From Acidobacteriota bacterium (GTDB lineage Bacteria; Acidobacteriota; Thermoanaerobaculia; Thermoanaerobaculales; Thermoanaerobaculaceae), in contig DAIDOU010000101.1 in assembly GCA_027458945.1 (NCBI GenBank), positions 1 to 54,479 on the forward strand: 54,479 bases of DNA, written 5' to 3'. The stretch's first letter is position 1. Every line of letters starts with the position of its first letter. The position numbers were made by a program, and so were the translations under genes. The notes beneath the pieces were generated by a model. The model saw only the letters and a list, made by a program, of their open reading frames with translations, did not search any database and was not told where the DNA came from. Positions 13,737-51,405 of this stretch are shown one piece after another.

Positions 13737-14252
13737 ATGAAGAAGGCAGCGATCACCACACTGTCCGTGCTCGGCGTCGTCGGTGCGGCCGCTATCGCCA
13801 CGGCCGCCAACGCGAACACGCTCGGCGTCCTCGGCGGCACCGGCGATACCTCCTCCAACGTGGCGGTCCTGGACGTGCGCTCGCCGTTCGACGGCTCAGT
13901 CGCCGCGCCCTCCCCGTCGGCCACGCCGCATCCGACCCCGTCCGACGCCTCGCCGGCTTCCGTCGCGCCGGCGGTCACGGAGCCATCCGAGAGGCCCGCA
14001 CACTCAGCGTCACCGGAGGTGTCCCCCGCGCCGGCGGTCACAGAGCCATCCGAGAGGTCAACACACTCAGCCTCACCGACGGCATCCCCCACGGCATCGC
14101 CGGTCTCGCCGGCACCGGTTCACGCGACGACGAGCGGATCCGGCCAGTCCGCGGTGAGCGGCGGCGACGAGACTGAGAACGAGACGTCAAGTGACGGAGC
14201 CTCCGAGCCCGCCGGTGATTCGGGCAGCACCGGCGGCCAGGCCGATGACTGA
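13737..14252 (+). CDS. Small secreted or membrane-anchored low-complexity (Pro/Ser/Ala, acidic C-terminus) protein
   Basis: ATG at 13737 after GGAGGA. N-terminal hydrophobic signal MKKAAITTLSVLGVVGAAAIATAA. Two 21-aa repeats. C-terminal VHATTSGSG motif followed by an acidic tail. Confidence 0.6.
   Translation: MKKAAITTLSVLGVVGAAAIATAANANTLGVLGGTGDTSSNVAVLDVRSPFDGSVAAPSPSATPHPTPSDASPASVAPAVTEPSERPAHSASPEVSPAPAVTEPSERSTHSASPTASPTASPVSPAPVHATTSGSGQSAVSGGDETENETSSDGASEPAGDSGSTGGQADD
13965..14090 (+). repeat. 2 x 63-bp in-frame tandem repeat
   Basis: Encodes APAVTEPSERPAHSASPEVSP / APAVTEPSERSTHSASPTASP. The copies start at 13965 and 14028. Confidence 0.85.
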
Positions 14253-30382: not shown

Positions 30383-32371
30383 CTAGATCACGACGAAGCT
30401 CGCGCTCACTCCCGGCGTGAGCGGGGACGAGGTCGCCCTCAGGGTGTAGATTCCGGCCCGATCGATGCTGCACCCCGAGAAGGCGGCGACGCCCGACACC
30501 GCCGCCTTCGGGTTGCTCATGCAGTTGAGGGTCGCCCCAGCGGGATTCGTGATCGCCAGAGTGACCGATGCGGTGCTGGTCGTGGTGTTCCCGAACGCGT
30601 CGAGCACGGCGACGACCGGCTGGGTCGCGAAGGTGATCGACCTGACCGAGTTCGAGGGCGATGAAGTGAAGCTCAGCCGGGTCGCGGGGCCGGCGCTGAT
30701 GGTGAAGCTGGCGCTCGTCGCCGAACTCAGGCCGAAGGCCGTCGCGGTCAACGTGTAGGTCCCCGCCTTCCCGATAGCGCACCCGCTGAAGGTCGCGGTG
30801 CCGTTCACTGCCGCCTTCGGGTTCGCGGCGCAACTCAGCGTCGCCCCGGCCGGGGTGGTGATCGACAGGGTGATCGAGGTCGTGCCTGAGGTCGTGTTGC
30901 CGCTCGCATCCTGAATGGCGACGGTCGGCTGGATGTCGAACGCGGCGCCGCTGAGCGCCGACGAAGGCGAGGTGGTGAAGGCCAGCTTGCGCGGGGTCGT
31001 GAAGATGAAGAACGTGGAGCTGACCCCGCTCTGCAGGCTCGCCGAGCTGGCGGTGAGCACGTAGCTTCCGGCCTGATTGATCCGGCAGCCATCGAAGGCA
31101 GCGACTCCCGCGACAGCGTTCTTGGGGTTGCTCGTGCAGACGAGCTTCCCCTTGGCGATGGTCAAGGCGACCGGAGCGGTGCTGCTCGTGACCGTGTTGC
31201 CGCCGGCATCCTGCACGGCGACCACCGGCTGGGTGGTGAAGGCCACGTTGCGGGCCGCGTTGCTGGGACTCGTCGTGAAGACCAGCTTGCTCGCCGCGCC
31301 AACGGAGACGACGACGGTGCCGCTGATGGCCGAGGACAAACCCGGCGAGGTTGCCGTCAGGGTGTAGGTGCCGGCCTTGTCGATCGTGCAACCCGAGAAC
31401 CCGCCGGTTCCGGAGGCAGCGGCGACCGGGTTGGCACTGCAGCTGAGGGTGGCGCCCGCAGGGGTGCTGATGGACAGCGTCACCGGAGCGGTGCTGATGG
31501 TCGAGGAACCGCTCGAGGTCTGGATCGCGACCACCGGCTGGATGCCGAAGGCGATGCCGCCCGTCGAGTTGGACGGATTGGTCGTGAAGGCGAGTTTGGC
31601 CGGACTCAGCGCCGTGGAGGCGACCCAGTTGTTCGCTGCATTCGTCGTGCTCCCGGTGAACGCCGCGCTCGCGGCCGGGACGATCGGGGCGATGGCGACC
31701 ATTGCGGCGCAGAGAAAGAGAAACATCACCGACAGGGCGCTCTCCGGGCCGATGCGTCCGGCCAAAGTGCGGATGCCAGGGTACGGCGGCCGAGAGTGCC
31801 CGGATCGACGGTCGCCTCGTCCTCGGGTCTCGCCCCGCGACGCGAGGAACTCGATGACCAGCGCGAGCAGCGTCACCGCGATCCATGCGGCGAAGGGGAC
31901 GAGAAGGCCGTGCTGCAGCCAGTAGGCCGGAAGGCCGATCCACGGAATCAGCAGGCAGCTCACCGCGATGATGTCGGCTCGGGCCAGCGGCGCGCTGTCG
32001 ACGTCCCGGTTGGCGTCGCCCGCGGTGATCAGGCTGCCGTCAGGATTGATTCCGACGATGCGATGCAGCCGGATGCCCGGCTCCGCCGAGCCTGCGGGAG
32101 CCCGGAAGGTCACCACCCGACCGAGCGGAGTCGGCGCGTCCGCCGACAAAGGCTGGGAGAGCACGACGTCGCCGATGGCGATGTGCGGCATCATCGAGCC
32201 GCTCTGCACGACCGTTCCCGTGAGGCCGAAGGCCATCGGGAGTGTGGCGCAGGCGGCAAGCGCGACGAGGAAGACCAGGTAGCCGCGCGCGAGAACGCGC
32301 ACGACCAAGAGCCCCCAGTCCACGACGACTGCGCGACGCGTCTGAGGCTCCTGGGCCGGCTCCCCTGTCAT
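30383..32371 (-). CDS. SipW-type (ER/archaeal-type) signal peptidase I fused in-frame to a protein with a SipW-type signal peptide and four Ig-like repeats
   Basis: 662 aa with no stop between the modules. Peptidase: TM, SGSMMP, RLHRIV, GDANRDVD, TM (aa 1-177). Arg-rich linker. Second hydrophobic segment ending ASA|AFTGSTTNAANNW (aa 203-249). Four repeats of about 100 aa. Confidence 0.75.
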   Translation of the reverse strand: MTGEPAQEPQTRRAVVVDWGLLVVRVLARGYLVFLVALAACATLPMAFGLTGTVVQSGSMMPHIAIGDVVLSQPLSADAPTPLGRVVTFRAPAGSAEPGIRLHRIVGINPDGSLITAGDANRDVDSAPLARADIIAVSCLLIPWIGLPAYWLQHGLLVPFAAWIAVTLLALVIEFLASRGETRGRGDRRSGHSRPPYPGIRTLAGRIGPESALSVMFLFLCAAMVAIAPIVPAASAAFTGSTTNAANNWVASTALSPAKLAFTTNPSNSTGGIAFGIQPVVAIQTSSGSSTISTAPVTLSISTPAGATLSCSANPVAAASGTGGFSGCTIDKAGTYTLTATSPGLSSAISGTVVVSVGAASKLVFTTSPSNAARNVAFTTQPVVAVQDAGGNTVTSSTAPVALTIAKGKLVCTSNPKNAVAGVAAFDGCRINQAGSYVLTASSASLQSGVSSTFFIFTTPRKLAFTTSPSSALSGAAFDIQPTVAIQDASGNTTSGTTSITLSITTPAGATLSCAANPKAAVNGTATFSGCAIGKAGTYTLTATAFGLSSATSASFTISAGPATRLSFTSSPSNSVRSITFATQPVVAVLDAFGNTTTSTASVTLAITNPAGATLNCMSNPKAAVSGVAAFSGCSIDRAGIYTLRATSSPLTPGVSASFVVI
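30386..31597 (-). repeat. Four tandem repeats of about 300 bp, each encoding an Ig-like domain of about 100 aa
   Basis: Repeat starts: KLAFTTNPSN (aa 259), KLVFTTSPSN (aa 362), KLAFTTSPSS (aa 462), RLSFTSSPSN (aa 565). Each has QPVVA(I/V)(Q/L)D, two Cys (..L.C..NP.....G.A.F.GC.I...G.Y.L.A) and TYTLTA-like strands. Confidence 0.85.
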
Positions 32372-40940: not shown

Positions 40941-42060
40941 TCAAGGGCAAGGTGGAGGGGTGATTTGGTCGAGGGCGGTGTGTGCTTGGCGCTCGAGCGT
41001 GGTGTCGCCGCGGGTGCCGACCTCGAGGCGGCGGAGCTTCTGGTAGGGGGCTCCGAGGGTCGCGGCGAGGACCGTGATCGGGATGCCGAGGGCTTGGCGG
41101 CGTTGACGAAGGACCAGGCCTGTTGGTGTCTCGGGTGAGGGGTGGGTGAGGGTGTGGAAGATCTCGTTCGCGATGTGCCGTTTCAGGCAGCGGATGATGT
41201 CGCGGTCAGAGAGCCCCTCGGCTCGACGCCGGGCGAAGTACTCCTCCGTTCGGGGCTCTTGGTGTCGCATCCGCAGGAGCACGATGCGGTAGAGGGCGCT
41301 GTTCGCTTGCCGGTTCCCACCTCGAGAGAGGCGGTGTCGGATGCGTTGCCCTGATGAGGCGGGGATCGGGGCGGCACCGCAGAGGGATGCGAACGCGGCC
41401 TTGGAGGTGAGTCTTTCGGGGTTGTCTCCGGCGGCGGTCAGGATGGTCGCCGCGACGACGACACCGACGCCGCTGAGGGCGAGGAGTGCCGGGTTGACGG
41501 CTCGGACGAGGGCATCGAGTTGCGCGTCGATGATCGTGAGCTCGTTGCGGAGAAGCGTGTGTCGGATCGCGAGCCGCTTCAACGTCTGCCGGGCGACGGA
41601 GTCAGGATCGGAGCCGCCTGAAGGCCTGGTCCGGTTCAAGACGGCGACAAGTTTCGTCTTGTCCAGTGCCCGGTAGTCCTGGCGAACCCGGTCGGGTGCG
41701 GTGATCAGGAGGCCGTGGATTTGGTTCATGGTCTGCGACCGGGCCTTGACCGCGGAATGGCGTTCGCTCATCAGAATCCGAAGCGATTCCACGCCCCCGT
41801 CACCCCGTTTCGGAGTCGCCGTCTGGGTGCCGGCGATGACCCCCAGCGCGGCTTGGTGGGCATCGATCGGGTCGGACTTCCCTTTGAGCCTGCGATGCTG
41901 CCTGTTCGGGCGGGCGATCTCCATGGCAGTGATTCCCGCAATCGCGAGGGCGCGAGCGATGCCGGCGCCGTAGGAGCCGGTGCCCTCGACGCCGACACGC
42001 TCGACGGTCTCGTGCTCCTGGAAGAACGCGACGACAGGGCGCCGATCCAAGTAACGATGA
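40941..42060 (-). pseudogene. IS110-family transposase, 5'-truncated
   Basis: ...VERVGVEGTGSYGAGIARAL...GKSDPIDAHQAA... plus the C-terminal domain (FASLCGAAPIPASSGQ..RHRLSRGGNRQANSALY). The N-terminal catalytic start is missing. The track ORF N-terminus is read-through of the tRNA. Confidence 0.75.
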
Positions 42061-42102
42061 CTTTTGGGGACCAGAACGCCGGGGGCCCGGAAAAGACGAA
42101 GC

Positions 42103-42137
42103 CCTGGTGAGAAACATGCTCTCACCAGGATTTTTTG
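42103..42137. terminator. Stem-loop with a T/A tract adjacent to the tRNA-Pro 3' end
   Basis: CCTGGTGAG (42103-42111), 9-nt loop, CTCACCAGG (42121-42129), ATTTTTT. On the minus strand it follows the tRNA directly. Confidence 0.6.
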
Positions 42138-42211
42138 TCGGGCTGACAGGATTTGAACCTGCGACCCCATGACCCCCAGTCATGTGCGCTACCAAGCTGC
42201 GCCACAGCCCG
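42138..42211 (-). tRNA. tRNA-Pro: tRNA-Pro (anticodon GGG)
   Basis: The reverse complement folds as a cloverleaf: acceptor CGGGCTG/CAGCCCG, D-arm GCGC-AGCTTGGTA-GCGC, anticodon arm CATGA-CTGGGGG-TCATG, T-arm GCAGG-TTCAAAT-CCTGT, discriminator A. No encoded CCA. Confidence 0.93.
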
Positions 42212-42401
42212 TGACGTTCGATATTCAGTTGTGTCGGGCCGACTGGAAAGGGCCTAAACCCCTTATCCCCCAGGCGTCCAAACTGCTCGATCTGGCATTG
42301 ATCCCGCGTGGTTCTGCGGCTCAAGTCATGCCGAGCGCGTCACGAGATGCATGGTTTCCATGGTTTTGGTCCCCTTTTTGGTCCCCGCACCGGGGACGTG
42401 A

Positions 42402-42416: not shown

Positions 42417-43842
42417 TGTGATGTCGCAGGACATCGGTGACGGTTCTGTGTCAGGACATCGGTGACACTTCCGGGGTGTCTGGTGGTGACACTTCTGCCG
42501 TTCTGATTGGTGGGTGAGCAAAAACGAGCCTGTCGATCCCCGTGTCCGTCTTGCGATCGCCCAGTGGCCGCCGGACGCGCCACGAGGTGCGGTGACGACG
42601 TTCTGCGCTGAGCACTCGGTCTCGAGGAAGACGTTCTACGAGATCCGGAAACGCGTCGCCGCCGATGGGCCTGCGGCGGCGTTGGAGCCACGCTCAAGGC
42701 GTCCGAAGAGCAGCCCGACGACGATCGCCGATGAGGTGAAGCAGCAAGCACTCGGGGTGCGGGCCGCGCTGGAGCAGTCGGGGCTGGATCACGGTCCGAT
42801 CAGCGTGCATGAGAAGCTGCGCGCCCTCGGGATGACCGCCCCGTCCCCGGCGTCGCTGGCGCGGGTCTTCCGTGACGCAGGCGTCGCGAGGTTGGAGCCA
42901 AAGAAGAAGCCTCGGGCCGCGTGGCGCCGGTTCGTGTATCCGGCGCCGAACGCGTGCTGGCAGCTGGATGCGACCGAATATGTCCTGACCGGTGGGCGCA
43001 AGTGCGTGATCTTCCAACTCATCGATGATCACGCCCGCTACGCCGTCGCCTCCCACGTCGCGGGGTCAGAGACCGCCGAAGCGGCTGTGATGGTCGTGAA
43101 GAAGGGCATCAACGCGCACGGGGTCCCGCAGCGGCTTCTCAGCGACAACGGCCTCGCGCTCAACCCCTCCCGACGTGGGGTGATCGGTCAACTCACCGCG
43201 TATGTCACCTCTCTCGGAGTCGAGGCGATCACCGGGAAACCATACAAGCCGACCACGCAGGGCAAGAACGAACGCTTCCATCAGACCCTGTTCCGCTTCC
43301 TCGATAAGCAGCCTCTCGCCGAGACGATCGAGCAACTTCAGGAGCAGGTCGACCAGTTCGACATCATCTACAACACGCAGCGTCCGCACCAGGGCCTACC
43401 CGGCAGGATCACACCGCAGCAGGCATGGGAAGCGACACGGAAGGCCGACCCGCCCCGGCCTCGCCCCGACAACACGCAGCGGCCACTGCCACGGCACGCT
43501 CCCGCGACCACCATGCACGGTCGGGCCGCCGACGAGGTGCGTGTCGCACGGATCCGCGGCAACGGGACCGTCAAAGCACGCGGCGTGTTGTTCCAGACCA
43601 GCAGCACCCTCGCCGGGCAGAGCGCCTATGTCGTTTACGAACAGGACACCGTGCTGTTCTTCGACGACGCCGGCACCCTGATCATCGAACACTCCTGGCC
43701 CGATCCCGGCATCAGATACGTCGGCAACGGGAAACCCCGAGGCCGACGACCCCAAACCCTCTAACCGTCACCGATGTCCAGACACAGGAAGTGTCACCGA
43801 TGTCCAGATACAGTTTCGTCACCGATGCCCCGAGACATCACA
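42417..43842 (+). mobile_element. Intact IS481-family insertion sequence
   Basis: Terminal inverted repeats TGTGATGTC... (42417) and ...GACATCACA (43842). 2-3 subterminal copies of GGACATCGGTGAC at each end. Single transposase ORF. Flanked by a 15-bp direct repeat. Confidence 0.85.
42514..43764 (+). CDS. IS481-family transposase (DDE integrase core)
   Basis: 416 aa with a GTG start. N-terminal HTH. DDE core with CWQLDATEY, LSDNG, KPYKPTTQGKNERFHQTL. Confidence 0.9.
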   Translation: MSKNEPVDPRVRLAIAQWPPDAPRGAVTTFCAEHSVSRKTFYEIRKRVAADGPAAALEPRSRRPKSSPTTIADEVKQQALGVRAALEQSGLDHGPISVHEKLRALGMTAPSPASLARVFRDAGVARLEPKKKPRAAWRRFVYPAPNACWQLDATEYVLTGGRKCVIFQLIDDHARYAVASHVAGSETAEAAVMVVKKGINAHGVPQRLLSDNGLALNPSRRGVIGQLTAYVTSLGVEAITGKPYKPTTQGKNERFHQTLFRFLDKQPLAETIEQLQEQVDQFDIIYNTQRPHQGLPGRITPQQAWEATRKADPPRPRPDNTQRPLPRHAPATTMHGRAADEVRVARIRGNGTVKARGVLFQTSSTLAGQSAYVVYEQDTVLFFDDAGTLIIEHSWPDPGIRYVGNGKPRGRRPQTL

Positions 43843-43857
43843 CCCCAAGCAGGGAAC
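43843..43857. repeat. Right copy of the 15-bp target-site duplication
   Basis: CCCCAAGCAGGGAAC, identical to 42402-42416. Confidence 0.8.
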
Positions 43858-43889
43858 TCGCGGGCTTTCGAGGTTCGAAGTTCGCGAGT
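43856..43889 (-). terminator. Stem-loop just downstream of the PrimPol-helicase stop
   Basis: ACTCGCG (43856-43862) pairs with CGCGAGT (43883-43889), with further inner pairing. It lies 7 nt after the stop at 43896-43898 on the minus strand. Confidence 0.4.
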
Positions 43890-43895
43890 CGACGA

Positions 43896-46328
43896 TCAGG
43901 CGGAACCTTCCTGGCCGACTGTGGCCTGTACCCGCTCGCCACCCTCAACAGGTTCCGCCGTCACGAAGCCTTCCTTCGACATCACGCGTCTGCGCCGTGA
44001 GTACATGCGTTCCAAGATAGGCACGTTCTTGTCTCGGTAGTCGTGAACGATCGCGGGCATAGACTGCTCCGCTCGTCCACGCGTGATGCGGCCGATCTGC
44101 TGAATGACGCGCCCTTTGAAAGAGACCGGGACAGTGAGGAAGAGAGTGTTGAGCGTCGGGAGGTCGAGACCTTCTCCGGCGATCTTGTCGATGGCGACAA
44201 GAACGAACGGCTGCTGCTGCGCGTCCATCTCCTCGAGCGAATGCCTGATGTCACGGCGGTTGGCGGCGGTGAGGCGTCCGTGAAGCCGGATCACCGGCGA
44301 AGCGCATGATTCCAGCGCATCCGCGAGCGCGTCGAGGTGTTGGAGCCTGTTTGTCAGTACGAGGCAAGTGCGCCCCTGGTCGGCTGCTTCTCTGACGTGC
44401 CCTGTAATCATTGCGTTGCGCTCGGTATCGGCGGCGAGTTCCGAGTAAATCGCCTGAACGGATGGACCGTCGATTCCGGGTTCCTCGGTGCGGAAGGTCG
44501 TCTCATGGACGACCATCTCGCGAGCAGCATGATCGGCGGTGTCGACCACGTGGCGGATCGGACCGCATTGCATCGTGATCAGTCCATTCATCTGATCGGC
44601 GCGGTAGGGTGTCGCCGTCATCCCCACCCAGTAGCGGACATTGACGTTGCGCAGGGCGGCTTCGGTTGCTGGTGCTGCGACGGCGTGGCATTCGTCGATG
44701 ATGATCTGCCCGTACTCCTCCAGCATGCTGGGGTCCGCGTTCCGATGCGCGACGGACTGCATCATGATCAGGTCCACAACGCCGCGCCGTTTCCGTCGCC
44801 CCGCCCCGAGCTGACCAATCTGCTTCTCGGTCAGGCCAAGGAACTGCTGGAGTCGTTCGCGCCACTGGGCGAGCAGTTCGGCACGGTTCACGAGGATCGC
44901 CGTTGGCGTCGCGCGTTCGGCGATGAGGGCGCAGGCCATGACCGTCTTGCCTGCGCCTGGAGGAGCGACGAGCACTCCGGTGTCGTGCGCGAGGAGCGCA
45001 TCGACCGCGCGCAGTTGCTCGTCTCGGAGTTGACCCGCAAAGGTCACCTCTAGACACGCCGGCGCCGTAGCCACTGTCTCGGTCGTTGTCTGGAAGCCTG
45101 CGTCCGCGAGGAGCGCTTCGGCTTCGTCGGCGAGTCCCCGAGGCAGGCGCAGTTCGTGCTCGTCATGCTCGAAGCTGGTGACCAGACGCGGCGTGCCGAA
45201 GGTACTGAACCGCTGAGCCTGTCTGCGGTAGAACTCCGGATTGGGCACGGACGCCATGTGCTTGAGTTCGGTGATCACAATCCCCGGAAGGAGCTCTGTC
45301 GGGATGTGCAGAACCGCATCGCGGCGTAGCCCCAGCTTTCGTCCCGCTATCGTGCGCGCGACCGCCTTGATACTTGATCGCCGCGGCCGTGCACCGAGCG
45401 ACTCCGCGGGCCCCACGCGTGACTCCGCGAGGCTCGTCGAACCGAGTTCAGCGACCCGTTCGACGGGTACGGGCGTCGTCATTGCCAGGGCCGCGAACTG
45501 ATCCTCATACGGATCCCAGGTCCCGGGATCGACGAACACGGTCGTCCCGCGTCGGCGGCAGTCGCCCTGCAACGGTAGCGCGATGAGATTGCCCAGGCGC
45601 GCCCGCCCAGTGGATCGTTCCGGCAGGGTGTCTTGCGACGGAAAGAAGCGATCGTAACTCTGAAAATCCATCGTCGGTCGGCGCGCCATGGCGGCGCGCA
45701 GAAGGCGCATCCCTGCCGTGCGTGCTGTCGCCGCCGGAACAAGGTCCTCGATAAAGATCCAGACATGCGCACCCTCACCGGATCGCGACACTTCGGTGAG
45801 CACGTCGATCCTGGCGCGCTCGCACTCCGCAACGAATGCTGCGGCATCATGCCGCCACTGCGCGTCGTCGAAGTCGCAGACCAGTAGACGGCACTGGTCG
45901 CCAGCAAGCATCGGGTAGAGGCCTGCGTGAAACTCGCGCTCTCCGGGTTGAGAAGCGCCTCGAAGATGCCGCTCCACGGTTCGATTTTCGAGTGGCAGAT
46001 AGTCCGCAGTGGTCTCGGATCCGGTGTAAAAGCCGCCGCGTACCGCGGGGGCCCAACCTGACTTTCCCGTGCGCGCGCTGGTCCATCGCACCGCGTGGAC
46101 ATCATTCCTGCCGACGAAGCGAGCACGGAACAGGGCGAGCTTTTCGGCACTCGACGATGCTGCCGTCACCGCAGGCAGCAGGCCAGCACGAGCGGGTACA
46201 GCCACCAAGGCCTTTTCCATCGCGTCTCTCGCGCGCTCAAGTTCTCCGAGCTCGCTGCGAGCCTCCGCGAGGTCCTGCTCCAGTCTCGTGATCCGAGACC
46301 TCAAGATGTCGATCTCGGCGTCAGTCAA
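43896..46328 (-). CDS. Fusion protein: coiled coil + archaeo-eukaryotic primase-polymerase (AEP/PrimPol) + SF2 DEAD/DEAH-type helicase
   Basis: 810 aa. AEP motifs LLVCDFDD (D152, D154), SGEGAHVW (H188), GNLIALPLQG. Helicase motifs APPGAGKT (K461), DECH (545-548), TATP, QQIGRITRG. The start is a TTG at 46326-46328 overlapping the abiEii stop (TTGACTGA). The next in-frame ATG is codon 36. Confidence 0.85.
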   Translation of the reverse strand: MTDAEIDILRSRITRLEQDLAEARSELGELERARDAMEKALVAVPARAGLLPAVTAASSSAEKLALFRARFVGRNDVHAVRWTSARTGKSGWAPAVRGGFYTGSETTADYLPLENRTVERHLRGASQPGEREFHAGLYPMLAGDQCRLLVCDFDDAQWRHDAAAFVAECERARIDVLTEVSRSGEGAHVWIFIEDLVPAATARTAGMRLLRAAMARRPTMDFQSYDRFFPSQDTLPERSTGRARLGNLIALPLQGDCRRRGTTVFVDPGTWDPYEDQFAALAMTTPVPVERVAELGSTSLAESRVGPAESLGARPRRSSIKAVARTIAGRKLGLRRDAVLHIPTELLPGIVITELKHMASVPNPEFYRRQAQRFSTFGTPRLVTSFEHDEHELRLPRGLADEAEALLADAGFQTTTETVATAPACLEVTFAGQLRDEQLRAVDALLAHDTGVLVAPPGAGKTVMACALIAERATPTAILVNRAELLAQWRERLQQFLGLTEKQIGQLGAGRRKRRGVVDLIMMQSVAHRNADPSMLEEYGQIIIDECHAVAAPATEAALRNVNVRYWVGMTATPYRADQMNGLITMQCGPIRHVVDTADHAAREMVVHETTFRTEEPGIDGPSVQAIYSELAADTERNAMITGHVREAADQGRTCLVLTNRLQHLDALADALESCASPVIRLHGRLTAANRRDIRHSLEEMDAQQQPFVLVAIDKIAGEGLDLPTLNTLFLTVPVSFKGRVIQQIGRITRGRAEQSMPAIVHDYRDKNVPILERMYSRRRRVMSKEGFVTAEPVEGGERVQATVGQEGSA

Positions 46329-47229
46329 CGGCTTTTCCCCAGGACTGAGCGTTCGGGTCCCATATCAGATGGGCCACGTTATTTGTCAGGGCAGGTTCGG
46401 CGAAGAGTATGCATGCCTGAAGAAGTTCGACGAAGCTCTCCGGTGTCGACTGTTCGAGTCGTTGCTTTTTACGCCACGTTTCCCACTTGCGTTGTGCCAG
46501 CGCCGGCATCCCCGCGATCAGTGGCCCAAGAGGTTCGATGTCGACGTGACGGTAGCGGGCGACGGTGTCGATCGCTTCGCGCAGGTCTGCTCCGCGGATG
46601 ATCCTGGACCGTGCGATGGCCGCGATGTCGGTGAAGTCGCGCCAGCGGGTGTTCTGCTCACCTCGTTCGAGTGCGGTGACGATCTTCTCGGCAAGCACCA
46701 TGTGGTCGGGATAGCCTCTCAAGCGAAGTGTTCCGCCGAGCAGCAGCGGGAGCACGACTTCAGTCGGGGCCGGCCAGATCGGATCACCAAAGTTCACGTC
46801 GACGTGCAGAGCTACCCGCGCTGTCGCGAGTTGCGCGGTGATCTTGACGCGGACACCGTTGTAATCGGCGTCGTCCCGGATTGGCTCTCCTACTGCGGAG
46901 TCCGAGTCGAACTCCAATCCGTCCTCGAGGTGCACTTCGATGATGCTGCGCACCCGTTGCTCGACATCGGCTATGTCGTTGGCGAATCCAGTCGCTGCGA
47001 AGTCGATATCGCGGGTCGGCCGTCGCGCAGCGAATGCCGCCATAAGCACACCGCCCTTGAGTACGAACTCTCCGACATGCTCAGAGACGGCCAACCGGGC
47101 GAGAAAACCTTCGAGCGCGTACAGCGTGAAGTACTCAGCAGGATCGCGTCCGTCGCGGCGGGCGAGATTGCGCAGATCGTTGTACGCCTGCCCAGCAGGA
47201 GTGTCTCGTGTCGGCGTTGGCGGAGTCAT
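46321..47229 (-). CDS. abiEii: AbiEii/AbiGii-family nucleotidyltransferase toxin (DUF1814)
   Basis: 302 aa from the ATG at 47227-47229, with an ATGA overlap with abiEi. NTase motifs FVLKGG..., RPTRDIDF (D74, D76), DVNFGDPI. Confidence 0.85.
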   Translation of the reverse strand: MTPPTPTRDTPAGQAYNDLRNLARRDGRDPAEYFTLYALEGFLARLAVSEHVGEFVLKGGVLMAAFAARRPTRDIDFAATGFANDIADVEQRVRSIIEVHLEDGLEFDSDSAVGEPIRDDADYNGVRVKITAQLATARVALHVDVNFGDPIWPAPTEVVLPLLLGGTLRLRGYPDHMVLAEKIVTALERGEQNTRWRDFTDIAAIARSRIIRGADLREAIDTVARYRHVDIEPLGPLIAGMPALAQRKWETWRKKQRLEQSTPESFVELLQACILFAEPALTNNVAHLIWDPNAQSWGKAVD

Positions 47230-47804
47230 AGGAGCGCCTCGAGCGCCTGGCGGATCCGCGGCTGCGCCTTTGGGAACGACGAGGCAACCTTCAACAGGGC
47301 TGCCGGTGAGTTCCCGCGGCGGCGTAACCACCGTCGGAGTGCGTCGTAGGCGACGTCGCTGCCTTCTTGATGCATGAGCCGGAAGCAGTCCACGATCGTT
47401 CTCTCGGCTGAGTAGATGGAGAACCTAAGTCCATTTCCGGCATCGATGTGGTCGCGTCCGATGTGAAAAGTTGTCGGGTCGAAGCTGTGCCAGGCAACGT
47501 GAGCGAGCCCAACGGGATGATGGACACCACGCGGTAGGGCGATATCGGACTCGAACGGGATGGCGTCGCTCAGGTCGTGGTGCACGAGCGCACTCGTTAG
47601 ACACAACGTCGCCTCTTCACGCACGGCCGTTGCTGCGGCGAGCGAAGCAAAGGCAGTGTCGATCTTGTCAGGACGCAGATACACGCCGCGACCTACGCGT
47701 TCGATCTCACCCTTCGCGAGAAGGTCGTAAACCTGATCTTTCCGCAGGCCTGCGGTGCGAGCGTCGCCGAGCGTGAACACGGGTCCGAGGTCCGCCGCCA
47801 TCAT
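47226..47804 (-). CDS. abiEi: AbiEi-family type IV antitoxin / transcriptional regulator
   Basis: 192 aa. GGGAGG RBS before ATGATG. N-terminal winged-HTH (FTLGDARTAGLRKDQVYDLLAKGEIERVGRGVY) and a C-terminal AbiEi_4-like domain. Confidence 0.8.
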   Translation of the reverse strand: MMAADLGPVFTLGDARTAGLRKDQVYDLLAKGEIERVGRGVYLRPDKIDTAFASLAAATAVREEATLCLTSALVHHDLSDAIPFESDIALPRGVHHPVGLAHVAWHSFDPTTFHIGRDHIDAGNGLRFSIYSAERTIVDCFRLMHQEGSDVAYDALRRWLRRRGNSPAALLKVASSFPKAQPRIRQALEALL

Positions 47805-47923
47805 CCACCTCCCAACTCTCTACACATGAAGCCTATCTGTAATGAGTTAGGAAGGCTACGACGAGGCTCAAGGGATGAAACGTTCCTTAGGGCTATTCAT
47901 CTGAGCGGAGTGGTCTTTGGCGT

Positions 47924-48736
47924 GTGGTTGATCGCCTGCGCGCAGGTGTGCATTACCCCAGGTCGGCGGGCGAGTTGAGGTCGTGGTTCGCTACAGATGA
48001 GGACTGCCTCGATTACCTCGACTGGGTCCGATGGCCGGCGGGGTTCGTCTGCCCGCATTGCGGGGGCGCGGGCGGCTGGCGGGTAGCGGACGGCGGGTAC
48101 CGGTGCCGGCGCTGCGGTAGGCGGACCGCGGTGACGGCGGGGACGTTGTTCGACCGGCGGCGCACGCCTCTGACGGTGTGGTTCGAGGCGTGCTGGATGT
48201 TCGTTTCGGCCAAGAATGGTGTCTCCGCGTTGACGGTGCAGCGGTCGCTGGAGATCGGTTCGTACGCCACCGAGTGGGCGATGCTGCACCGGCTGCGGCA
48301 GGTGCTGATCCGTCCGGGCCGGGAGCGGCTGTCGGGCACGGTGCAGGTCGATAAGACCTACTTCGGTGGCGTCGAGCCAGGGCTGGCGGGCGGCCGCGCG
48401 AAGGGGAAGAAATCGATGGTGGCGGTGGCTGTTGAAGAGGCCGCCCGCGGATTCGGCCGCTGTCGGATGCAGGTCATTCAGGATGCTTCCGCGGCCACGT
48501 TGGGTGGTTTCATCAGCGACAACGTGGAACCCGGCGCCACCGTGATCACCGACGGGTGGTCCGGCTACGCCGGTGTTACCGGCCTGGGCTACCAGCATGA
48601 GCCGCGCAATCAGTCCGCCGCCAGGAAGGCCGGCGAGGACATCGGCACGCTGCTGCCCGGCGTGCACCGGGTCGCGTCCCTCGCCAAGCGGTGGATGCTG
48701 GGAACACATCAAGCCTCTATCACCGAAGCGCACTTG
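47924..48736 (+). pseudogene. IS1595-family (ISXO2-like) transposase, 3'-truncated
   Basis: N-terminal zinc ribbon WPAGFVCPHCGG...CRRCG and a DDE region (VDKTYFGG, ITDGWSGY). Homology ends near ...GTHQASITEAHL at about 48736, where the convergent IS21 fragment begins. Confidence 0.75.
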
Positions 48737-48737
48737 T

Positions 48738-49694
48738 CGGGTCGACGGAGTAATCGTTGCCCAGGACCCGGACGTAGTAATCCCGTGGCAGCCTCACCTG
48801 CTCTCGGAACCCGAGCTCGGGTGCGACGGGCGGAAGGGGCAGCATCCGGTCGCGGTCCAACCCCACAAGCGACGCCGGCTTCGCCCGCAAAGACCTCACC
48901 CTCCGAGCATTCGCGATCGGCAGCCAGGCCCGCAGCTGCTGATTGAAATCATCTGCCGAAGAGAACGACCGGCCGGGCAGGAACGAGGTCTCCAGGAACC
49001 CGTTCGCGCGTTCGACGATGCCTTTCGACTCCGGGTCGAACGGTTTCAGCTGCACCAGCTTCGTCGCGAGCATCCCGCAGAACCCCGGCACCCCATGGGC
49101 GAGGTTGTTGCGGCGGCCGATGCCGGCCTCGTTGTCCCAGATCAGACGGCGCGGGACCGCGCCGAGCTGCCCGGACAGCAGCGACCACATGCCCGCCAAG
49201 AGATCCTGCGTCGTCCGGGTCGGGATCATCTCCGCCGTGATGAACCTCGAAAATGACGCCACGATCACCAGCACCGGGAACACGACCGGCCCGGCCGGTG
49301 TCATCACCGGCGTCGCCGGGAACCAGAGATCGCACTGCGCCTGATCACCGGCCGCGAACGCTAGCCGGTCAGCGGGATCCTTCGGCTCGTACTCCGGCCG
49401 CAACAACGCGACCTTCTTCCGGAACCACGACATCGAACCCGACCAGCCGGCGCGCTCCGCGATCACCGTCGCCGGCATCGACGGGAACTCCACCAACAAC
49501 TGCCGGACACGAACCTCGAACACGTCGAACGCCGAGGGGACCACCGGCCTCGAATACGACGGCGGCCCCTCGAGCGCCAACGCCTTCGTCACCGTGTCCC
49601 TAGCAACCCCGAGATGCTTCGCGATCTGCCGGATCGACAGGCCCTCGCTGCCATGCAGGTGCCGGATCTCCGCCCATTCCTTCACTGTGATCAC
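48738..49694 (-). pseudogene. istA: IS21-family transposase IstA, 3'-truncated (no istB)
   Basis: GTG start at 49692-49694. HTH (LSIRQIAKHLGVARDTV) and a DDE core (QCDLW..., IWDNE..., KGIVERANGF). It ends at ...GNDYSVDP, where full-length IstA proteins continue. Confidence 0.8.
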
Positions 49695-49713
49695 CCAACC
49701 AATCTGTCTGGGT

Positions 49714-49757
49714 GGCCTAGATTTCGAAGAGGCGCTACCGGCCTAGATTTCGAAGAG
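49714..49757. repeat. Two 18-bp direct repeats at the IS21-fragment terminus (multiple terminal repeats typical of IS21-family ends)
   Basis: GGCCTAGATTTCGAAGAG at 49714-49731 and at 49740-49757. The element end is probably TGTGTCAG (reverse complement) at about 49760-49767. Confidence 0.65.
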
Positions 49758-49777
49758 CGCTGACACAGGGGTGGAGG

Positions 49778-50410
49778 GTGTCCAAGAAGACCGTGCTCAA
49801 GTTAATGCGCGAGCTCGGGTTGCAGTGCCCGGTTCGGCGCCGCAAACGCTGCAACTCGTTTCGTGGCGAGGTCGGCGAGGCAGCCGACAACGTGTTGAAC
49901 CGCGAGTTCGCGACCAGAGTCAGGCATACCAAATGGGTCACGGGCGTGACCGAGTTCAAGATCGGTACCTCCAAGGTCTACGTCTCCTCCATCCTCGATC
50001 TGCACGACAACAGAGTCATCTCAACGATGGCAGGACCCTCTCCCAGCGTGAAGATGGTCACCGACGGTCTCCGCCTAGCAATCGGCGAGCTGGAGCCCGG
50101 CGAGCGAGCCCTGGTTCACTCTGACCAAGGATTTCAATACCGCCACGCCCTCTGGCGAGACGCGTTGCGAGAGGCCGGGCTGACCCAATCGATGTCCCGC
50201 AAGGGCACATGTCTCGACAACGCGGTGATCGAAGGCTTCTTCAGCCACCTCAAGGAAGAATGGTTCCGCATCCAGCAACCCGAAACTCTCGACGAGTTCC
50301 ACGCAGGGCTGAGGAGATACCTTCACTGGTGGAACTCTGCCCGACTCCAAGAACGGCTCGGCTACCTCAGCCCGGACGAGTATCAAGCACAGCTGGCCCC
50401 AACCGCGTAA
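49778..50410 (+). pseudogene. IS3-family OrfB (DDE) fragment, 5'-truncated by the IS21 insertion
   Basis: Begins at ...KTVLKLMRELGLQ and continues through the DDE core (HSDQGFQY, SRKGTCLDNAVIEGFF). IS3-type right inverted repeat CGTCCAACTTTCGGGGACCACTCCA at 50423-50447. Confidence 0.8.
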
Positions 50411-50447
50411 TGTCTATTTGCACGTCCAACTTTCGGGGACCACTCCA

Positions 50448-51159
50448 GGAGCCCATTCGTGTTCTCGTTCGAACCACGCTGCCACGGCGAGCGGGAGTCG
50501 CAGAAGTAGACCGGCGTCCCGAGCGATTTCGTGATCTCGATGTGCCTGGCCATCTCGGTGCCCTGGTCCCAGGTGATCGACCGCAGCAGGCCATCGGGCA
50601 GATCACCCATCCGCGCTTTCAACGCCTCGTGCAGCGACTCGCCATCCCGGCGGGGCAGATGCAGCAGCCGGACCAGCCGCGTCTGCCGTTCGACGAGAGT
50701 GCCGATCGCGGATCCCTGCCCCCGGCCGACGATGAGATCCCCCTCCCAGTGACCGGCTTCGGATCGGTCGGCCGGTTCGAAGGGCCGGTCGTGGATCGTC
50801 AGCATGGGCTGCTGGAACCGGGGCCGGCGCCGCTGCGTGTCCTGGTGAGCGCGCCGGTGATCCCGCCCTGTCCGAAGCGGCGAGCGGTGCTGCGGTGCCA
50901 GCTTCGAAGGCCGCAGGAACGCGGATCCGGGCGCGTAGAGGACCTGGTAGATGCTCTCGCGGCACAACTGCAGCTCCGGGTTCTCAGGGAATGTGAGCCG
51001 CAGGTGCCGGCTGATCTGTTCCGGGCTCCACCGCTGCCCCAGCATCTCCACCACCGACCGCCGCAGGACCGGCTCGATCTCGACACGCCGTCGAGGGCGG
51101 CGGGCCCGCCGGGCCGTCGCCCGCCGGTGCGCATCGAACGGCCGATAGCCCCGCCCGGC
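50448..51159 (-). pseudogene. IS30-family transposase fragment, truncated at both ends
   Basis: ...RGYRPFDAHRRATARRARRP...WSPEQISRHL...GHWEGDLIVG...TWDQGTEMA...SPWQRGSNENTNGLL. It is cut after NGLL by the IS3 end at 50447 and lacks the N-terminal HTH. Confidence 0.75.
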
Positions 51160-51405
51160 ACTTACGTCAACGACGACGAGAACCCTGTGGGAAGTGACAG
51201 CACGATACGAGACGCACCCGCGCTGATCGCCTTCATCAGCAACACCTGTGCGGACTCGCAGAGATGGATCGAGCATGCTCTCCGCGGCGGCATCGACGGC
51301 GTCCATGAAGACTTCGCCGAGACCAGCTCGTCGGTTCTCGTACCAGCTTGCGGCAGCACGGTACTCGTCGAGCGCTTCACCATGCCCACGCCAGGCGAGA
51401 CTCAC
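51160..51405 (-). pseudogene. ParE/RelE-family toxin remnant, fused in-frame to the IS30 fragment
   Basis: ...EALDEYRAAASWYENRRAGLGEVFMDAVDAAAESMLDP... matches the ParE-like pattern (A..WYE....GLG..F). No antitoxin gene fits in the 72 nt upstream. The C-terminus is lost. Confidence 0.4.

Follow-up and report, generated by a model that had tools for sequence, protein, structure and literature searches.

An IEE-family gene predicted to share one operon with an AbiE toxin-antitoxin pair on a tRNA-Pro island remnant

Positions 1-54,479 of contig DAIDOU010000101.1 (assembly GCA_027458945.1), a stretch that we refer to as the window, encode on the minus strand an AbiEi/AbiEii toxin-antitoxin (TA) pair followed, with overlapping stop and start codons, by a gene homologous to IEE of Escherichia coli O157, an excision enhancer for insertion sequences (IS). 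An earlier reading of the sequence alone (the original prediction) had proposed that the three genes form a candidate three-component defense system. Our analyses point, with moderate confidence, to a more modest explanation: two known modules that share one promoter on a small tRNA-Pro island, rather than a demonstrated new defense system. The AbiE pair and the IEE homolog are each a new member of a known family. To our knowledge, neither the joining of the two in a single coupled operon nor the statistical linkage between AbiE and IEE presented below has been described, and a literature search returned nothing that describes a combination of AbiE with an IEE-type primase/helicase gene.

Architecture of the three-gene unit

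The unit consists of abiEi (47804→47226, minus strand), which encodes a 192-aa AbiEi_4-type antitoxin and transcriptional regulator; abiEii (47229→46321, minus strand), which encodes a DUF1814 nucleotidyltransferase toxin of 302 aa counted from its ATG; and the iee homolog (46328→43896, minus strand), which encodes an 810-aa protein from a TTG start. The open reading frame list and the minus-strand sequence agree on the three co-directional frames and the coordinates originally given for them, and both of the claimed start/stop overlaps can be read directly from the sequence. Overlap between abiEi and abiEii consists of ATGA at 47229-47226 (abiEii ATG at 47229-47227, abiEi TGA at 47228-47226), and that between abiEii and iee consists of the 8 nt TTGACTGA (iee TTG at 46328-46326, abiEii TGA at 46323-46321). 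With the antitoxin gene first and stop and start codons overlapping, the canonical bicistronic AbiE layout is present in the window.

The original prediction had raised the question of whether the third frame begins at the TTG or at an ATG further downstream, and several features favor the TTG. Four related loci (L081, L012, L091, and L092) retain both this TTG and the 8-nt overlap and share the junction GCCG-TTG-ACT-(G/A)A with TGA or TAA as the abiEii stop codon. The first 35 residues of the iee product form a heptad-like, coiled-coil-like N-terminal peptide that is conserved at the protein level while DNA changes are synonymous. Met37, the alternative start, varies among homologs in a 12-sequence alignment. 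The TTG is thus well supported as the predicted true start of iee, and the confirmed overlaps, together with conservation of the 8-nt overlap, bear out the operon-like coupling that had been claimed for the three genes.

Assignment of the first two genes to AbiE rests on concordant profile matches. AbiEi matches the Pfam family AbiEi_4 (PF13338, 6.4e-10) and the PADLOC AbiEi model (7.3e-50 over residues 8-191), and AbiEii matches PF08843 (2.6e-33) and its PADLOC model (3.6e-80). Residues K58-G59-G60, D74, and D76 of the AbiEii GG...DxD motif are invariant, the nearest solved structure is AbiGII (9hlo_B, 3e-17), and AbiEi lies directly upstream of AbiEii in every related metagenome locus with room to test, within a set of 80. 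Judged by these matches, the AbiE identity proposed for the pair is secure.

AbiE is known from Lactococcus and Streptococcus agalactiae, and the related MenAT systems are known from Mycobacterium tuberculosis. The window pair resembles type IV TA/abortive-infection AbiE systems in its two overlapping genes, its AbiEi_4 winged helix-turn-helix antitoxin, and its DUF1814 nucleotidyltransferase with the GG...DxD motif, and the 80 loci most closely related to it all look like two-gene pairs of the canonical kind. It differs from these systems in that a third gene is predicted to be translationally coupled to the toxin gene and in that its leader yielded no operator-like inverted repeats.

This 84-bp leader or promoter region (47805..47888, minus strand) is conserved and can be aligned with the corresponding region of two related islands, those of Cryobacterium sp. 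TmT2-59 (L081) and Microbacteriaceae bacterium X2B (L007). Its homology to the related islands in blastn ends at 47888, where an IS1595-family element starts. The originally noted single lower-GC region upstream of abiEi is there: the 120 bp at 47800-47919 have a GC content of 48%, as compared to 58-70% in the genes, and make up the only low-GC stretch, and GGGAGG precedes the abiEi ATG. The hairpin described after the last stop codon fared less well. An imperfect hairpin is indeed predicted by folding at 43855..43890 (minus strand), 6 nt past the iee stop, and is partly conserved in L007 and L081, but it lacks a U-tract and folds no better than shuffled sequences (z -1.4), making it a weakly supported candidate terminator. 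A scan of 43600-48100 for consensus promoters and terminators gave no match, none to the sigma-70 consensus included, a negative that is uninformative in high-GC actinobacterial DNA, and no operator-like direct or inverted repeats (seed of at least 6) were found in the leader at 47780-47900. Given that no consensus signals were found and that the hairpin is weak, one promoter and one terminator for the three genes are plausible but unproven.

The third gene encodes an IEE-family protein

We compared the 810-aa protein to the IEE of E. coli O157 (ECs1305/Z1568; Kusumoto 2011; Calvo 2023, PMC9943667), a 786-aa protein taken from the EDL933 record (L090:5866-8226). The two are collinear over their full length and share 37% identity over 751 aa (BLASTP, E 1e-142). 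The E. coli protein matches the identical Pfam models, AEP-TOTE (PF22548, 1.7e-98), ResIII, and Helicase_C, and shares 45-48% identity with those members of the set of 80 homologous loci described below that come from proteobacteria; this places the E. coli and window proteins in one family.

Two enzymatic domains were delineated. An archaeo-eukaryotic primase (AEP, PrimPol) domain spans residues 62-293 (45450..46145, minus strand), matches PF22548 'AEP-TOTE' at 2e-67, is Z1568-like, and contains D152 and D154 (the DxD of motif A), H188 (motif B), and D226 (motif C). A superfamily 2 (SF2) ATPase/helicase core follows at residues 433-756 (44061..45032, minus strand), with Walker A K461, DECH at 545-548, and the motif VI sequence QQIGRITR; Pfam models cover this part as ResIII (residues 433-576, 1e-22) and Helicase_C (residues 649-750, 6e-9). 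D152, D154, H188, D226, K461, D545-E546-C547-H548, and the QQIGRITR motif are invariant in the 12-sequence alignment, and the residues published for IEE (D142/D144/H178/D216/K451; PMC9943667) correspond to window D152/D154/H188/D226/K461 with a constant offset of +10. The SF2 part has both the Walker A lysine and the arginine finger of the IEE ATPase. The solved structures nearest to the AEP part are those of the CRISPR-associated primase-polymerase (CAPP; 7nqd/7nqf, 1e-9), and those nearest to the ATPase part are XPBII (6p4f, 9e-26) and UvsW (2oca, 9e-11), which agrees with the structural neighbors reported for IEE, CAPP 7NQE and UvsW 2OCA (bioRxiv 10.1101/2023.06.07.543989). On sequence grounds, the third protein is unambiguously an IEE-family member that joins a PrimPol to an XPB/UvsW-like SF2 ATPase.

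The AEP and SF2 domains and the catalytic residues named in the original prediction (D152/D154, H188, K461, and DECH) thus stand, all of them being invariant. Its statement that it knew of no experimentally described system with this combination stands in part. The domain combination of the third gene is not that of an undescribed enzyme, because IEE has already been characterized genetically and biochemically in E. coli O157; at the level of gene content, the literature search left the pairing of AbiE with IEE without a described precedent.

In vitro, IEE polymerizes DNA in a Mn-dependent, error-prone manner and is active in microhomology-mediated end joining (MMEJ); it joins 3' overhangs at microhomologies of at least 4 bp and needs both domains to do so, and its ATPase is DNA-dependent and does not unwind DNA (PMC9943667). 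In vivo, it raises the excision of elements of the IS3, IS1, and IS30 families and gives rise to adjacent deletions, in each case only with an active transposase (PMC9943667; bioRxiv 10.1101/2023.06.07.543989). Homologs in Actinobacteria have already been noted (bioRxiv 10.1101/2023.06.07.543989), and broader roles are a matter of speculation by the authors who characterized the enzyme (PMC9943667).

The window protein has the three-part layout of E. coli IEE, in which a short helix at the N terminus is followed by a Z1568-like AEP domain and an SF2 ATPase, and retains the catalytic residues; both genes lie on an integrative element amid IS-rich DNA. Unlike the 786-aa E. coli protein, the window protein is 810 aa long and comes from an actinobacterial host. 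The genetic setting is also different: no AbiE neighbor is annotated beside E. coli iee, whereas window iee is the third gene of a predicted AbiE operon, with a TTG that overlaps the toxin stop.

A tRNA-Pro island interrupted by insertion sequences

Positions 43842-47888 of the window are 97% identical to the Cryobacterium contig (L081), in which the order is tRNA-Pro(GGG), a tyrosine integrase on the opposite strand, abiEi, abiEii, iee with the same 8-nt overlap, and a repeat of the last 46-47 nt of the tRNA. This forms an integrative island of approximately 5.6 kb that carries the abiEi-abiEii-iee operon as its sole cargo. The Microbacteriaceae bacterium X2B locus (L007) contains the same island at the same tRNA, plus an IS630-type element and a pair of AAA-ATPase and subtilase genes. 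In both relatives the integrase adjoins abiEi, and the opposite island end carries a direct repeat of the final 46-47 nt of the tRNA.

The window retains the corresponding tRNA-Pro(GGG) at 42137..42211 (minus strand; ARAGORN), an integration hot spot common to the related islands. A remnant of the distal end of the island lies at 42258..42392 (minus strand) and matches L081 8637-8764 and L007 12134-12267 in blastn, a segment that in these relatives is located just inside the attR-like repeat. Between this remnant and iee is an IS481/IS3-like IS (42417..43842, plus strand) that encodes an rve transposase at 42514-43764 (Pfam rve, rve_3) and is bounded by 67-bp imperfect terminal inverted repeats, found by self-blast at 42417-42483 and 43778-43842. 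Homology to the related islands breaks at 43842, and the element sits 54 bp past the iee stop, splitting the distal end of the island. On the other side, the IS1595-family element that starts at 47889 occupies the position of the integrase in the related islands, with its ISXO2-like transposase gene at 47924..48946 (plus strand; Pfam DDE_Tnp_IS1595, 1.7e-24). A search of the whole window for an island integrase found none. As judged from this alignment, the window contains the remnant of an island whose integrase was lost to IS insertions.

Further IS remains surround the island at 40941-42170 and 47889-51405. An N-terminally truncated IS110-family transposase abuts the tRNA on the left, and on the right the IS1595 element is followed by a truncated IstA of IS21, a fragment of IS3 OrfB, and an IS30-like gene; a gene for an IS-excision enhancer is thus situated in the midst of clustered IS remains. 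A degenerate partial copy of the tRNA-Pro 3' half sits between the window tRNA and the distal remnant (42137-42392), and L081 contains a truncated 5' tRNA half upstream of the full tRNA-Pro. These partial copies suggest repeated integrations at the tRNA-Pro hot spot. In L007, the cargo directly downstream of IEE (L007:8559-12121) comprises an AAA ATPase of 332 aa and an S8 subtilase of 853 aa.

AbiE is a recurrent upstream neighbor of IEE

To place the window in context, we assembled 80 IEE loci from 80 species genomes, with proteins 37-92% identical to the window protein. Genes were called with a locus-trained codon model, and neighbors were clustered and then scanned with Pfam. The neighbor tally covers positions -2 to +2 at 78 of these loci (134 upstream and 131 downstream genes, 265 in total) and the 25 commonest Pfam families among them. 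AbiE subfamilies beyond the window's own were found by Pfam scans, because an iterative profile search reached only the window's own subfamily.

No neighbor family is general. The flanks of IEE contain mostly TA genes (AbiE, Fic, PIN, HipA, and ParE/Phd), IS transposases, and a few integrases, which account for 5 of the 265 flanking genes (three upstream and two downstream). Replication, partition, and conjugation families, TPR, OB/cold-shock, and TBP families, and cas families are all absent from the 25 commonest neighbor families at the 78 loci. The count of upstream neighbors that the original prediction had proposed for homologs of the third protein came out divided: AbiEii is the commonest family upstream of IEE (6/32 co-directional -1 genes) and makes up 9/134 of the -1/-2 genes as compared to 3/131 of the +1/+2 genes, yet approximately 85% of the 80 IEE loci lack AbiE.

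AbiE-linked loci are scattered on a neighbor-joining tree of IEE proteins. A co-directional, closely spaced AbiEi-AbiEii-IEE arrangement occurs in five separate clades, represented by the window clade, L030, L039, L032, and L059, the last with a frameshifted abiEii. The antitoxin is of the AbiEi_4 type in the window and L059 and of the AbiEi_1 type in L030 and L039, and the toxins of the five clades are mutually unalignable or only approximately 35% identical. The window's AbiE subfamily is also located near IEE in other layouts, divergent in L004 and downstream in L044 and L063. These observations suggest that the AbiE→IEE order is non-random, being recurrent, oriented, and more than expected from co-residence alone, and they leave a modest chance of functional coupling.

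Several individual loci deserve mention. L058 was considered as an AbiE-linked locus and rejected; its -1 gene encodes an XRE helix-turn-helix protein, and an AbiEi-like regulator is all that is present. At L038:3805-5890, a 2.1-kb insertion separates abiEii from IEE and a second copy of the final 19 abiEii codons stands directly upstream of IEE, while the sister locus L030 is uninterrupted. Two Kocuria loci (L084:5020-8418 and L085:5028-8418) encode a 111-aa protein with no Pfam match, a 187-aa DUF6036 nucleotidyltransferase, and IEE; this three-gene unit, which recurs in two distinct chromosomal settings, parallels the AbiE-IEE layout with another nucleotidyltransferase.

A protein of approximately 390 aa that lacks a Pfam match is encoded directly upstream of and co-directionally with IEE in L061, L062, L063, L066, L068 (Pseudonocardiales), and L073, which fall into two distant IEE clades, and in L061, L063, L066, and L068 its gene is preceded by one for a protein of approximately 124 aa, also without a Pfam match. 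The larger protein is possibly an uncharacterized partner of IEE. L082 (L082:1-8758) and L083 contain an 80%-identical IEE homolog amid genes for SIR2_2, an SMC/AAA ATPase, type I restriction-modification, DO-GTPase2, and GIY-YIG proteins, a setting that resembles a defense island; a gene for a 248-aa NYN-like protein ends 3 nt before the GTG start of IEE.

AbiE and IEE are mutually dispensable

We also examined the association from the side of AbiE, using 80 metagenomic loci with the closest AbiEii relatives (47-90% identity). IEE is absent from 77 of the 80 loci, including those with AbiE pairs 82-90% identical to the window's (L094-L097), and lies beside the remaining three pairs, downstream in L091 and L092 and divergently in L156.

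L007 provides an example of the converse loss. At L007:5894-8401, most of abiEii and the iee TTG have been deleted in frame, leaving AbiEii residues 1-31 joined to IEE residue 5. The locus retains abiEi and IEE, the toxin is lost, and, as read from the sequence, IEE would be translated from the abiEii start. The deletion junction shows an imperfect 6-nt microhomology, GC(T/C)GAG; by a curious coincidence, this microhomology-mediated deletion lies beside the gene for an enzyme of microhomology end joining.

AbiE and IEE are mutually dispensable across relatives. With most IEE loci lacking AbiE, nearly all close AbiE relatives lacking IEE, and abiEii lost in L007, the three-component system of the original prediction does not hold as an obligate unit.

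Proposed function and alternatives

The mechanism that we infer combines co-transcription of the three genes, autoregulation by AbiEi, IS excision by the window ortholog, and an addiction role for AbiE. AbiEi/AbiEii would act as a type IV TA/abortive-infection pair that most likely stabilizes the island and may also give abortive-infection protection. By analogy with characterized AbiE, AbiEi would serve as DNA-binding antitoxin and autorepressor of the operon promoter, and AbiEii would be the nucleotidyltransferase toxin. The AEP domain of the IEE-family protein is predicted to be an error-prone polymerase, pairing 3' ends through microhomology and extending them, and the SF2 domain a DNA-dependent ATPase that holds the DNA; as in E. 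coli, the protein may cooperate with active transposase in excising elements of the IS3, IS1, and IS30 families and in producing adjacent deletions. The iee gene, which has no recognizable expression signals of its own, would be read from the abiE transcript by translational coupling via the TTG that overlaps the abiEii stop, and its level would thus be tied to AbiEi-controlled, presumably low, transcription. A function of AbiE as an addiction module is plausible because the unit is cargo of a tRNA-Pro island with a tyrosine integrase in close relatives.

Several points weigh against this explanation. The AbiE→IEE order in five clades with different AbiE subtypes, and the DUF6036 nucleotidyltransferase in Kocuria, do not obviously follow from co-residence on islands. 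IS-excision activity has been shown for the E. coli protein only, and at 37% identity the function of the window ortholog could have diverged. The AEP domain is labeled 'conflict system' (TOTE) by Pfam and NCBI, which hints at roles beyond IS control. The window island is bracketed by several IS copies, so its IEE has not kept them out. Control by AbiEi, finally, is an analogy drawn for a leader in which no operator repeats were found.

A rival reading is a true three-component system directed against mobile genetic elements or phages, in which the IEE-like PrimPol-ATPase senses or processes foreign DNA or transposition/replication intermediates. This event would be coupled to the AbiEii toxin, for instance through release of AbiEii from AbiEi or through supply or modification of a nucleic-acid substrate. 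Such coupling would fit the rank of AbiEii as top family upstream of IEE, the five co-directional clades with either AbiEi_4- or AbiEi_1-type antitoxins, the joint travel of the Kocuria genes between two contexts, the presence of the window's AbiE subfamily near IEE in further layouts, the 'conflict system' label, and a match of the AEP domain to the PADLOC model for CRISPR-associated PrimPol. We nevertheless consider it unlikely, since Fic, PIN, HipA, and ParE/Phd flank IEE as well, the two modules occur apart in most of the loci examined from either side, L007 dropped abiEii and retained IEE, E. coli IEE acts without an AbiE partner and has none annotated beside it, and the literature searched holds no experiment that ties IEE to phage defense. 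It is also quite unlikely that nucleotidyltransferase toxin modules in general (AbiEi-AbiEii, or a small antitoxin with a DUF6036 nucleotidyltransferase) are repeatedly assembled with IEE into an anti-mobile-element module in which DNA synthesis or end synapsis by IEE at intermediates of transposition or phage replication is coupled to the toxin; were this the case, IEE would be a broader immune effector and not just an IS-excision factor.

A general MMEJ polymerase for break repair or damage tolerance, serving the host or the island with no special tie to IS or AbiE, would agree with the Mn-dependent, error-prone end joining of IEE in vitro, with the broader roles on which its authors speculate (PMC9943667), and with the very diverse contexts of its homologs. 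We judge it improbable, because E. coli genetics link the phenotype to an active transposase (PMC9943667; bioRxiv 10.1101/2023.06.07.543989) and because homologs lie in accessory DNA with many IS and TA genes rather than at core repair loci. The original prediction had itself offered another alternative, that the PrimPol-helicase is the replication initiator of an integrative element and AbiE its addiction module. Replicases are numerous among the AEP PrimPols of mobile elements (PMC5862659), and one part of this alternative was borne out, in that the genes of L081 and L007 are cargo of a tRNA-Pro island beside a tyrosine integrase. The replicase role was rejected as highly improbable on several counts. 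Integrases are few among the flanking genes, replication, partition, and conjugation families are not among the commonest, and full-length homologs number 0 in 50,697 phage genomes. On large plasmids it is a solo gene, with a full-length copy in 97 plasmid records, and the two rhodobacterial records inspected are each assigned their own replicon type. PrimPol replicases are expected with an SF3/MCM helicase plus PriCT. The helicase of the window protein is instead an XPB/UvsW-like SF2 enzyme, which in IEE does not unwind DNA, and the characterized family member is an IS-excision/MMEJ factor (PMC9943667). The plasmid copies, together with the tRNA-Pro islands of L081 and L007, show that the IEE family spreads horizontally.

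We therefore retain the explanation of two known modules under one promoter. IEE is one of few known host-side factors that remove insertion sequences, and nearly all work on it comes from pathogenic E. coli. The present locus shows an actinobacterial ortholog as the predicted last gene of an AbiE operon on a tRNA island of 5.6 kb. If the linkage reflects only co-residence, the locus is a tidy case of a small island that packs an anti-IS gene together with an addiction module. A functional linkage would tie a nucleotidyltransferase toxin to a PrimPol that acts on transposition intermediates and offer a testable entry into the regulation of IEE.

Comparison with other systems

Three-gene TA operons with an extra gene on the TA promoter are known, for example mazEF-mazG and the toxin-antitoxin-chaperone (TAC) systems of HigBA with a SecB-like chaperone. 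The window resembles them in having a third cistron downstream of an autoregulated TA pair, autoregulation here being taken by analogy. Unlike in these operons, the third gene of the window encodes a large DNA enzyme whose independent function is known, and any modulatory link to the TA pair is putative.

The AEP domain invites comparison with two further systems. CAPP (PDB 7NQD/7NQF) is the nearest solved AEP by sequence, and the PADLOC model 'PrimPol, CAS-associated' matches at 1e-83. Unlike CAPP, the window protein is fused to an SF2 ATPase and has no adjacent cas genes. Identity with CAPP was rejected, the NCBIfam model PrimPol_Msp scoring 40.7 bits against a cutoff of 200 and the neighbors being abiE and IS genes.

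TOTE (TPR, OB, TBP, Effector) conflict systems, as outlined in PMC12458937 with reference to Aravind, Iyer and Burroughs 2022, have linked TPR, OB-fold (cold-shock), and TBP genes. The window AEP domain belongs to the Pfam family named for them. Within the bounds of that outline, strict TOTE membership does not apply to the window system, since neither the commonest IEE neighbor families at the 78 loci nor the flanks of the unit in the window, which consist of IS elements, include TPR, OB, or TBP partners.

Elsewhere in the window, self-blast detected diverged direct repeats of approximately 500 bp with 66-69% identity at 30428-31560 and a tandem duplication of approximately 63 bp at 13964-14093, both unrelated to AbiE-IEE.

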